Under the pieces are notes generated by a model. It ran no database searches, was not told the DNA's origin, and saw only the letters and a list, made by a program, of their open reading frames with translations. The position numbers and the translations under genes were made by a program. Shown in pieces: positions 2,781 to 4,718 of a stretch of DNA of 11,400 nucleotides; the first letter of the stretch is position 1; each line of letters begins with the position of its first letter. The DNA comes from a virus: the UHGV virus genome UHGV-1549577; one strand, given 5' to 3'.

Positions 2781-4718
2781 GTGACTCTTAAACGGGCCTG
2801 CTCCCTGCTGACGGTGAAATCCTTCAGTGAGGATGAGCGGGTGATCACCGGGATTGCGTCAACGCCTTCTCCGGATCGGGATGGTGACATCCTGGAGCCG
2901 GAGGGCGCGGAGTTTGGCAGTGCGATCCCGTTTCTCTGGCAGCATGACCATTCCCGCCCGGTGGGGCAGTGTACGGTGCGCCGGGTCAGCGAAGGGCTGG
3001 AAATCACGGCAACACTGGCGAAGCCCGTGCCGGATATGCCATCGCAACTGGCTGCCCGGCTGGATGAGGCCTGGGCGGCCATTAAGACCGGGCTGGTCAG
3101 GGGGCTGTCCGTGGGCTTCCGTCCCCATGAATACACCTTTCTGGACGGAGGCGGACTGCATTTTCTGCGCTGGGAGCTGATGGAGGTGTCTGCCGTCACC
3201 GTGCCCGCGAATGCGGAATGCACCATCCGGACCATTAAATCTTACGACCGCCAGTTTTCTGCCGCGTCCGGCAACCGGAAACCGGTGGTGAAAATCGCAT
3301 CTTCTGCCGGCGCTGCGGCACAGTCAACAACCGTTTTTCATAAGGAAAAGACCATAATGAATATTGGCGAACAGATTAAAAGTTTTGAAAACAAGCGTGC
3401 AGCACTGGCAGCCTCCCTTGAGGAGGTCATGACCAAAGCCGCAGAGGAAGGGCGCACGCTGGATGTGGAGGAGGAAGAGCATTACGACAACACCGCAGCG
3501 GAAATACGTCAGGTGGATGCGCACCTGAAGCGCCTGCGTGAACTGGAAGCCGGTAAGGCCGCCACGGCGCAGCCGGTGAAACAGGCCGGTAACGGGAATG
3601 TGGCCGCGGTGGCTTCTGCGCCGGTGATCCGTGTGGAGCAGAAACTGGATAAGGGGATTGGTTTCGCACGTTTTGCCAAATCGCTGGCTGCGGCTAAAGG
3701 TGTCCGCTCTGAAGCCCTGGAAGTGGCCCGTCGTCAGTATCCGGATGACAGTCGTCTGCATCATGTCCTGAAATCGGCAGTGGGCGCGGGGACCACCACG
3801 GATCCGCAGTGGGCAGGCAGCCTGTCTGAATATCAGGAATACGCACAGGACTTTATTGATTACCTGCGTCCTCAGACCATTATCGGGCGATTTGGTCAGG
3901 GCGGGATCCCTGCACTTCGTCAGGTGCCGTTCAATATCCGTGTGCACGCCCAGGTGTCGGGCGGTGCTGCCGGCTGGGTGGGTGAGGGTAAGGCAAAACC
4001 CCTGACGAAGTTTGATTTTGAATCCATCACCTTCAGTCATGCGAAGGTGTCGGCCATTGCGGTACTGACGGAAGAATTGATCCGTTTTTCCAGTCCGGCT
4101 GCTGATGCACTGGTCCGTAATGCGCTGGCGGAAGCGGTGGTGGCGCGTCTGGATACAGACTTTGTGGACCCGAAAAAAGCCGCAGTGGCAGATGTCTCCC
4201 CGGCGTCCATCACCCATGATGTGAAGGGCACGGCATCAAGCGGTAACCCGGATGCGGATGCAGAGGCGGCGTTTGGACAGTTTGTGGCAGCAAACCTGCA
4301 GCCCACTGGTGCTGTCTGGCTGATGTCCAGCACCAATGCCCTGGCGCTGTCCATGCGTAAAAATGCGCTGGGTCAGAAAGAATACCCGGACATGACCCTG
4401 CTGGGTGGCTCCTTCCAGGGGCTGCCGGTGATTGTCTCCCAGTACGTGGGTGACCAGCTGGTGCTGGTGAATGCCCCGGATATTTATCTGGCGGATGACG
4501 GCGGCGTGGCAGTGGATATGTCCCGCGAGGCATCACTGGAAATGCAGTCTGAGCCGACCGGCGACAGTACCACGCCGTCGCCGGTGGAGCTGGTTTCCAT
4601 GTTCCAGACAGGCAGTGTGGCCATCCGTGCGGAGCGCTGGATCAACTGGCGTCGTCGCCGTACCGCGGCGGTGGCGGTGATCACCGGAGTGAACTACGGC
4701 AGTGCGTCCGGCGGCTGA
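2781..4718 (+). CDS. Prohead protease-major capsid protein fusion (HK97 fold, with scaffold-like delta domain)
   Basis: 645-aa single ORF with GTG start and AGGAGG 5 nt upstream. The N-terminal ~150 aa carry HK97 prohead protease motifs (DRDGDI, LWQHD, GLSVGF, LMEVSAVTVPAN). From aa 193 (MNIGEQIKSFENKRAALAASLEEV...) there is a coiled-coil delta-like segment followed by HK97-family capsid-like sequence. Confidence 0.85.
   Translation: MTLKRACSLLTVKSFSEDERVITGIASTPSPDRDGDILEPEGAEFGSAIPFLWQHDHSRPVGQCTVRRVSEGLEITATLAKPVPDMPSQLAARLDEAWAAIKTGLVRGLSVGFRPHEYTFLDGGGLHFLRWELMEVSAVTVPANAECTIRTIKSYDRQFSAASGNRKPVVKIASSAGAAAQSTTVFHKEKTIMNIGEQIKSFENKRAALAASLEEVMTKAAEEGRTLDVEEEEHYDNTAAEIRQVDAHLKRLRELEAGKAATAQPVKQAGNGNVAAVASAPVIRVEQKLDKGIGFARFAKSLAAAKGVRSEALEVARRQYPDDSRLHHVLKSAVGAGTTTDPQWAGSLSEYQEYAQDFIDYLRPQTIIGRFGQGGIPALRQVPFNIRVHAQVSGGAAGWVGEGKAKPLTKFDFESITFSHAKVSAIAVLTEELIRFSSPAADALVRNALAEAVVARLDTDFVDPKKAAVADVSPASITHDVKGTASSGNPDADAEAAFGQFVAANLQPTGAVWLMSSTNALALSMRKNALGQKEYPDMTLLGGSFQGLPVIVSQYVGDQLVLVNAPDIYLADDGGVAVDMSREASLEMQSEPTGDSTTPSPVELVSMFQTGSVAIRAERWINWRRRRTAAVAVITGVNYGSASGG
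3357..4718 (+). CDS. Possible independent major capsid protein from an in-frame internal start
   Basis: An in-frame ATG at 3357 lies exactly at the protease/capsid junction, preceded by AAGGA at 3342-3346. Whether it is used is inference. Confidence 0.35.
   Translation: MNIGEQIKSFENKRAALAASLEEVMTKAAEEGRTLDVEEEEHYDNTAAEIRQVDAHLKRLRELEAGKAATAQPVKQAGNGNVAAVASAPVIRVEQKLDKGIGFARFAKSLAAAKGVRSEALEVARRQYPDDSRLHHVLKSAVGAGTTTDPQWAGSLSEYQEYAQDFIDYLRPQTIIGRFGQGGIPALRQVPFNIRVHAQVSGGAAGWVGEGKAKPLTKFDFESITFSHAKVSAIAVLTEELIRFSSPAADALVRNALAEAVVARLDTDFVDPKKAAVADVSPASITHDVKGTASSGNPDADAEAAFGQFVAANLQPTGAVWLMSSTNALALSMRKNALGQKEYPDMTLLGGSFQGLPVIVSQYVGDQLVLVNAPDIYLADDGGVAVDMSREASLEMQSEPTGDSTTPSPVELVSMFQTGSVAIRAERWINWRRRRTAAVAVITGVNYGSASGG

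Follow-up and report, generated by a model that had tools for sequence, protein, structure and literature searches.

A conserved internal start site in a fused prohead protease–capsid gene of lambdoid phages suggests two products from one reading frame

In the lambda gene pair C/Nu3, a single reading frame encodes two products, with experimental proof that the internal start is used. The long form consists of an N-terminal protease of the ClpP/S49-like type followed by an assembly domain; initiation at the internal start yields the assembly domain alone and in excess, and the protease enters the prohead through the C-terminal part common to both forms. Herpesvirus UL26 and UL26.5 are likewise nested, in-frame protease–scaffold and scaffold products of which the shorter is in excess. 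HK97 has two genes in different frames, with the stop codon of the protease gene (gp4) lying 2 nucleotides (nt) before the ATG of the capsid gene (gp5). The HK97 capsid protein carries an N-terminal helical delta domain instead of relying on a scaffolding protein, and gp4 has a C-terminal tail of ~60 residues (163–225) that reportedly targets it into the prohead. One frame with two products is also found in Mu I/Z and in HFTV1 gp17/gp17.5, and in the latter, too, initiation at the internal start has been demonstrated by experiment (bioRxiv 10.64898/2026.09.13.751334). Here we analyse an 11,400-nt stretch of the virus genome UHGV-1549577 (hereafter, the window), in which one open reading frame (ORF) of 645 residues carries an S78-type prohead protease followed by a delta domain and an HK97-fold capsid body, with an in-frame ATG (codon 193) at the junction. 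Judging from the sequence and its relatives, we consider it likely that this ORF is a nested gene with two starts in one frame, which would produce a 69-kDa protease–capsid form and a 48-kDa capsid form.

The arrangement was likened to C/Nu3 in an earlier note made from the window's sequence. That comparison holds for the N-terminal position of the protease and for a conserved internal start with its own ribosome-binding site. The proposed long form would likewise join a protease to an assembly domain, the internal start would provide the assembly domain alone and in excess, and the shared C-terminal part would carry the protease into the prohead. The likeness does not extend to the nested product, which in lambda is a separate scaffolding protein, with the capsid protein E encoded by another gene, whereas in the window it is the capsid protein itself, complete with its delta domain. 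The protease also differs in type, being S78 rather than ClpP/S49-like. With HK97 the window shares the protease family, the capsid fold, a predicted N-terminal helical delta domain and the adjacency of protease and capsid sequences. Unlike in HK97, these sequences lie in one frame, and the protease is tethered to the delta domain; it is predicted to stop near residue 154, without the C-terminal tail of gp4. The position of the portal gene differs as well: it precedes the protease and capsid genes in HK97 (TerL-portal-protease-capsid) and lies downstream of the capsid gene in the window.

The domain assignment of the earlier note, with the protease N-terminal and the delta domain and capsid core C-terminal, proved right in Pfam and NCBIfam searches (judged by curated cut-offs), in an AlphaFold2 model, in Foldseek comparisons and in an alignment to gp4. 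The profile search backs a protease domain in the N-terminal half, where Peptidase_S78 (PF04586) matches residues 48–153 with 34.1 bits against a cut-off of 21. The stricter protease equivalog model, TIGR01543, gives 46.6 bits, short of the 59 that it requires, and the domain is therefore assigned to the S78 family but not to the HK97 gp4 equivalogs. Residues 17–154 align with residues 25–162 of gp4 at 29% identity (E = 1e-8). In the BLAST alignment, Ser110 (GLSVGF, codon at 3108–3110) falls exactly on Ser114 of gp4 (GMSVGF), and His55 (2943–2945) lies one residue off His65 of gp4 in an ungapped segment. We take Ser114 and His65 to be catalytic in gp4, which makes Ser110 and His55 the candidate catalytic residues of the window protein; both are unchanged across 101 fused homologues.

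In the C-terminal half, Phage_capsid (PF05065) matches residues 386–635 (52.5 bits, cut-off 24.2) and TIGR01554, major_cap_HK97, matches residues 204–584 (77.3 bits, cut-off 27.5). Foldseek pairs the modelled capsid body with the capsid proteins of Bxb1, HK97, D3 and T5 at a probability of 1.0; a search for a close solved structure found none, the only match being a weak one to the Bxb1 capsid protein. The AlphaFold2 model has a mean predicted local distance difference test score (pLDDT) of 86 and is divided into four parts: protease, linker, helices and body. The linker is modelled with a pLDDT below 50 over residues 155–189, varies in sequence and length among homologues, and contains the internal ribosome-binding site at its 3′ end. 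Met193 is located at the end of the linker, just ahead of the first of two long helices that, in the model, are typical of a delta or scaffolding domain. The C-terminal boundary of the delta domain, and hence the putative maturation cleavage site, is placed where the AlphaFold2 model suggests it.

At the internal start, the ATG at 3357 and the AAGGA at 3342–3346 lie where the earlier note had put them, and the match to the anti-Shine-Dalgarno (anti-SD) sequence is somewhat fuller, TAAGGA. Its strength is similar to that of the Shine-Dalgarno (SD) elements at the terL and portal starts. The ORF has 52 in-frame ATG, GTG and TTG codons, of which the one at 3357 has by far the least local structure. 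Windows of 61 nt centred at 3354–3381 have minimum free energies (MFE) of −2 to −6.6 kcal/mol, compared to an ORF mean of −18.8 kcal/mol, and a G+C content of 0.28–0.39, compared to 0.60 for the ORF (about −4 standard deviations at the ATG). This stretch is the most open and most A+T-rich of the ORF, and its −2.0 kcal/mol window is the least structured anywhere in the 11.4 kb.

To compare the junction across relatives, we sampled 80 genomic loci, of which 62 have one continuous fused frame, giving 63 fused loci with the window. The loci span Gammaproteobacteria, Alphaproteobacteria, Betaproteobacteria, Flavobacteriaceae, Actinomycetes, Phycisphaerae, Vicinamibacterales, Clostridia and Polyangia. 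In addition, an exhaustive search of cluster representatives returned 12,339 matches, the best 150 of which (38–54% identity) were analysed; ~145 of these 150 have more than 100 residues ahead of the junction and are thus fused. Of the 63 fused loci, 59 have ATG and 4 have GTG as the junction codon; one further locus, L041, has TTG. Among close homologues (73–99% identity) the junction methionine is present in 112 of 112, while the preceding ~20 residues are variable and contain insertions and deletions. In the ~145 fused representatives, the junction column holds methionine in 119 and valine in 10, and in the remainder the methionine is mostly displaced by 1–4 residues.

The valines are informative at the nucleotide level. 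All 12 junction valine codons (8 valine representatives, representative P0121 and 3 genomic loci) are GTG, although GTG makes up 12–63% of the valine codons in those ORFs; the joint probability of this outcome is 1.4e-6. A plain amino-acid substitution was rejected as an explanation, as any GTN codon would then serve. Two apparent exceptions are alignment artefacts: GTT in P0135, where the true junction ATG lies a few residues downstream, and CTG in P0121, where the true codon is GTG.

An SD-like core precedes the junction start by 5–12 nt (median 8) in 60 of the 63 loci, compared to 22% of control in-frame positions. It is found in all three codon phases (34, 18 and 8 loci) and is encoded by at least 26 residue combinations, for example K-G, K-E-G, E-E-G, Q-G-A and G-R. 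Pairing with the anti-SD sequence is within the top 5% of the locus's own ORF in 29 of 63 loci, many of which carry AAGGAGGG. In 8-nt windows, the anti-SD profile has a sharp main peak at window starts −16 to −12, where 54–71% of loci reach −5 kcal/mol or lower; over most of the upstream linker this share is 0–5%, with 10% in one distal window at −75, and a minor bump of up to ~20% of loci occurs ~30 nt downstream. Because the main peak is confined to −16 to −12, linker composition cannot explain the SD signal, and we rejected the possibility that it is a by-product of a Lys/Glu/Gly-rich linker, given the position-specific peak and the use of three codon phases.

The RNA around the junction follows the same pattern as in the window. 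Folding of the 61-nt segment is among the most open 5% in 36 of 63 loci, with a median G+C z-score of −2.3, and an A occurs at +3 in 81% and at +4 in 75% of loci. The G+C content at third codon positions falls from 0.76 to 0.59–0.65 in the region between ~25 codons upstream and 15 codons downstream of the junction; the reduction is seen in 53–56 of the 63 loci (Wilcoxon p = 7e-10 and 3e-11). These comparisons indicate that the start codon, the SD element and the open RNA region at the junction are under purifying selection.

Relatives in which protease and capsid are separate genes point to the same site. In five capsid-only representatives (P0201, P0231, P0254, P0258 and P0269), the first residue coincides with query residue 193 or lies a few positions away, and in ~15 unfused genomic loci the capsid gene starts at the residue that aligns with Met193. 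Four of these (L043, L062, L074 and L075) have an in-frame stop codon, TAA, that closes the protease gene 15–21 nt (5–7 codons) before the capsid ATG, and this TAA is the sole difference from the fused state. In L043, L062 and L074 the stop codon overlaps the SD element as TAAGGA. Since the stop lies in the frame of the capsid gene, one base change converts the fused into the unfused state and vice versa; in all four loci, stop-codon read-through would likewise recreate the fusion. The other unfused loci have the usual ATGA overlap, in a different frame. When the capsid parts of 63 fused and 15 unfused loci are placed on a neighbour-joining tree, parsimony puts the fused state at the root and requires no fewer than 11 changes of state. 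Switching this easy is to be expected only of a capsid start site that functions in fused and unfused genes alike. Taken with the codon, SD and open-RNA evidence, the starts of the unfused relatives give strong comparative support to the view of the earlier note that the internal ATG is usable for initiation.

How two starts might serve assembly can be rationalized as follows. Initiation at GTG 2781 would produce the 69-kDa form, in which the S78 protease is tied to the delta domain via a flexible linker of ~38 residues, and initiation at ATG 3357 would produce the 48-kDa capsid precursor alone. As both forms have the same delta domain and capsid body, they should co-assemble in one prohead. 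The delta domains of HK97 face the prohead interior, so each long-form subunit would put one protease inside the shell, and the covalent tether would substitute for the C-terminal tail that reportedly targets HK97 gp4 non-covalently. Once the shell is assembled, the protease would cut off itself together with the linker and the delta domains, so that a capsid body of ~37 kDa remains. Co-assembly, self-removal of the protease and the position of the delta cleavage site are steps that we infer by analogy with HK97. The number of proteases per prohead would depend on the relative strength of the two starts. A crude initiation model, which combines anti-SD pairing, a start-codon term and the unfolding of 71 nt, ranks the internal start above the upstream one in 45 of 61 loci; the predicted advantage has a median of ~10-fold, the numbers being rough. 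The gap is larger in the window because its upstream site abuts a terminator-like hairpin. These predicted strengths would fit a prohead with many capsid subunits for each protease molecule; from them and from the conserved junction we infer the synthesis of both products and their ratio. A weak start codon is no general trait of the long form: this possibility was rejected, since 54 of 61 loci have ATG as the upstream codon and the GTG characterizes the E. coli lineage.

Several points weigh against two products. Three of the 63 loci lack an SD-like core, though some host phyla use SD elements little. The 63 loci are mutually related, and the p-values therefore overstate their independence; given the at least 11 state changes, ancestors that were unfused until recently could account for some of the conservation. 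As for the window, its SD element is moderate, with 13% of in-frame positions equally strong, and its 10-nt spacing to the ATG is at the long end. The initiation model ignores spacing, standby sites and ribosome traffic, and the internal site could be blocked by the passage of ribosomes that initiated upstream. A rough estimate of volumes suggests that a prohead made entirely of fusion subunits is possible. Finally, we sought proteomic, ribosome-profiling or other experimental observations of either product in the literature and found none.

The alternative that survives best is that only the fusion protein is made, every capsid subunit starting with a protease, and that the junction ATG and SD element are an unused relic of a once separate capsid gene, dating from the loss of the protease stop codon. 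The short mutational distance to the unfused relatives, one in-frame TAA away, speaks for this, as do the repeated state changes, by which some fused genes may be young, and the moderate SD element of the window. We nevertheless regard it as unlikely. The root of the tree is fused by parsimony, and the fused state fills deep clades (38–78% identity) in which the linker is saturated with substitutions, insertions and deletions while the start codon is still ATG or GTG. A relic would not persist at the nucleotide level, and the upkeep of GTG at all 12 junction valines, of the SD element across codon phases and of A+T-rich synonymous sites therefore argues against one.

It is even less probable that the free capsid precursor arises mainly by a post-translational cut of the linker by the protease, made before or in the course of assembly, with internal initiation playing a minor part. 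In favour are the length and disorder of the linker and the fact that, in HK97, capsid N-termini are processed by an S78 protease; such a cut could also operate alongside internal initiation. A cut would, however, yield protease and capsid in a 1:1 ratio, and it leaves the conserved start codon, the well-spaced SD element and the open A+T-rich island unexplained. That the short product is translated from an mRNA of its own, with a 5′ end within the ORF, as for herpesvirus UL26.5 with its separate promoter and transcript, appears very improbable. The A+T-richness of the junction is also typical of promoters, but no sigma-70-like promoter was found between 2600 and 5000, lambdoid late genes are read from a single antiterminated transcript, and an internal transcript would need the same SD element and start codon anyway.

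That the fusion is a sequencing or assembly error which deleted a stop codon or frameshift can practically be dismissed: nothing was found in its favour, and the same unbroken ORF is present, at 90–99.6% DNA identity, in 93 phage records, as well as in 1252 of the 5426 complete E. coli genomes, where a single genome can contain up to 7 copies, and fused homologues occur in many phyla.

The records include the Shiga toxin (Stx) phages BP-4795, 2851, YYZ-2008 and 1717. In BP-4795 (99.1% DNA identity) the gene, ORF56, is recorded as 'putative major head protein/prohead protease'. Homologues at 73–78% identity in Salmonella, Enterobacter, Klebsiella, Serratia, Kosakonia and Pantoea are all fused. 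The window protein matches the fused 'major head protein' family PHROG 617 (phrog_617) with E = 2e-261, residues 1–639 covering profile positions 7–626 of 626. More distantly, gp03 of Pseudomonas phage PAJU2 (48% identity) is annotated as 'prohead protease fused capsid protein' and lies in the gene order TerL-fusion-small ORFs-portal, as in the window. BP-4795 ORF56, its counterparts in O157 prophages and PAJU2 gp03 have the architecture of the window protein and belong to its family; at the PAJU2 junction, CAGGAGGG is followed by ATG, a start signal like that of the window. A nested capsid coding sequence (CDS) is not annotated in the BP-4795, O157 prophage or PAJU2 records.

Fusions of the two functions have also been published for other viruses: in Arthrobacter phages, where the one-gene arrangement was called unusual (PMC5513430), in thaumarchaeal proviruses (PMC6563490), in phage MD8 with a protease of a different type, S49 (PMC8508860), and in one further description (bioRxiv 10.1101/2020.01.10.891226). 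Such published one-gene fusions, for example those of the Arthrobacter phages, combine the same two functions in sequences that are distant from or unrelated to the window family; those of actinophage clusters AM, AU, AN and EE are unrelated to it. NCBIfam holds a model for a prohead protease/major capsid protein fusion protein, NF045541, which the window protein matches with 53.1 bits, far under the cut-off of 525; the ORF has the architecture of this family but belongs to another one. The earlier note had treated protease and capsid in one gene as a departure from the norm: the fusion is genuine, and it is already annotated and published, neither rare nor new. Three representatives, P0001 (1079 residues), P0123 (1094) and P0133 (1091), have extra N-terminal sequence apparently joined to the fusion, with a TerL_ATPase domain in P0001; these could be true triple fusions, frameshifts or gene-calling artefacts.

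With respect to the internal start, the literature searched contained no mention of one in protease–capsid fusions, though one may have been made before; to the extent searched, it is an undescribed variant of the nested protease/scaffold theme. Returning to the two-start reading, we lean towards a broader form of it, which we hold to be somewhat more probable than its negation: that fused S78 protease–capsid genes generally encode two products, that the internal start supplies the bulk of the capsid protein, that the fused and unfused states flip via single-base substitutions in a stop codon, which may overlap the SD element as TAAGGA, that tether and targeting tail are interchangeable, and that the protease dose is set by the ratio of the two ribosome-binding sites alone. 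Its scope would be many bacterial phyla and thousands of prophages, and if it is true, the principal capsid CDS is absent from the present annotation of each of these genomes. The major capsid CDS would lie concealed within a longer one in roughly one in four complete E. coli genomes, as well as in many Stx phages and many other taxa. The correction would be relevant to virion proteomics, to expression constructs for capsids or virus-like particles and to the interpretation of mutations. If both products are made, the gene would offer a simple, genetically tractable case of the metering of a destructive enzyme into a phage's own shell, and the principle of C/Nu3 and UL26/UL26.5 would extend beyond protease–scaffold genes to that of the capsid protein. 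The recurrent changes of a single base that interconvert fused and unfused genes represent a natural experiment on the need for covalent protease targeting.

Table 1. Features of the window around the protease–capsid ORF, with coordinates in nucleotides from the first letter of the window.
Feature	Coordinates	Strand	Basis or remarks
Small terminase	496–1059	+	Profile matches
Large terminase (terL)	1056–2717	+	Profile matches
Terminator-like hairpin and T-run between terL and the fusion gene	2742–2768	+	7-bp stem at 2742–2759, then T-run
AGGAGG, SD element of the long form	2770–2775	+	Duplex −10.3 kcal/mol; 5 nt before GTG 2781
Protease–capsid ORF, 645 aa, 69.0 kDa, GTG start	2781–4718	+	Protease, linker, delta domain, HK97-fold capsid body
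S78 (HK97-type) prohead protease domain, aa 17–154	2829–3242	+	PF04586; pLDDT >90
Disordered hypervariable linker, aa 155–192	3243–3356	+	Tethers protease to delta domain
A+T-rich unstructured island around the internal start	3330–3400	+	G+C minimum and weakest folding of the ORF
TAAGGA, SD-like element	3341–3346	+	−6.2 kcal/mol; 10 nt before ATG
Internal in-frame ATG, codon 193, proposed start of free capsid precursor	3357–3359	+	Comparative evidence
Nested ORF, 453 aa, 48.2 kDa, proposed short product	3357–4718	+	Delta domain and capsid body
Delta (scaffold-like) domain, aa 193–292	3357–3656	+	Two long helices (195–222, 229–262), then loose segment 263–292
HK97-fold capsid body, aa 293–645, 37.4 kDa	3657–4715	+	Pfam, NCBIfam, model
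73-aa ORF	4763–4984	+	Between capsid and portal genes; overlaps portal start
Portal gene	4930–6294	+	Profile matches
Repeat-containing ORF	6291–7190	+	Directly 3′ of portal gene

The ORF list and profile searches identify the window as the late operon of a lambdoid siphovirus, read on the + strand (Table 1). The hairpin between terL and the fusion gene directly precedes the ribosome-binding site of the long form, which becomes structured as a result: the MFE of 71 nt is −20.1 kcal/mol around GTG 2781, compared to −6.6 kcal/mol at the internal ATG. Loci L006, L007 and L017 have upstream contexts of a hairpin plus T-run that resemble that of the window. The hairpin could act in attenuation, RNA stability or lowered translation of the long form. 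A second GCGGTTTTTTT is found at the terL stop (2700–2711), and the HK97 record has a 'putative terminator' annotated at the equivalent spot ahead of gp4.

The order TerS-TerL-protease/capsid-small ORF-portal in the window is also that of BP-4795 and of the distant phage PAJU2. The small ORF of 73 residues matches phrog_829, a family without an assigned function (E = 4e-38), and genes of 72–74 residues are likewise found 3′ of the fusion gene in the distant loci L083, L084 and L090. The ORF that follows the portal gene contains tandem units of ~54 residues (IPVPRDGRDYDPDVLQKAV...) and has a length of 299 residues, compared to 461 in BP-4795 ORF59, which is a difference of ~3 units. The PHROG families that it matches bear the label 'portal protein', probably because of mis-fused entries. 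Downstream of the repeat ORF lie head–tail connector genes, a tail tube gene and tail chaperone genes. The tail tube protein (8724–9440, +) has a C-terminal immunoglobulin (Ig)-like domain (Ig_2, I-set), and the two ORFs after it (9446–9820 and 9844–10125, +) resemble the G/GT tail chaperone pair, for which a −1 frameshift is usual.

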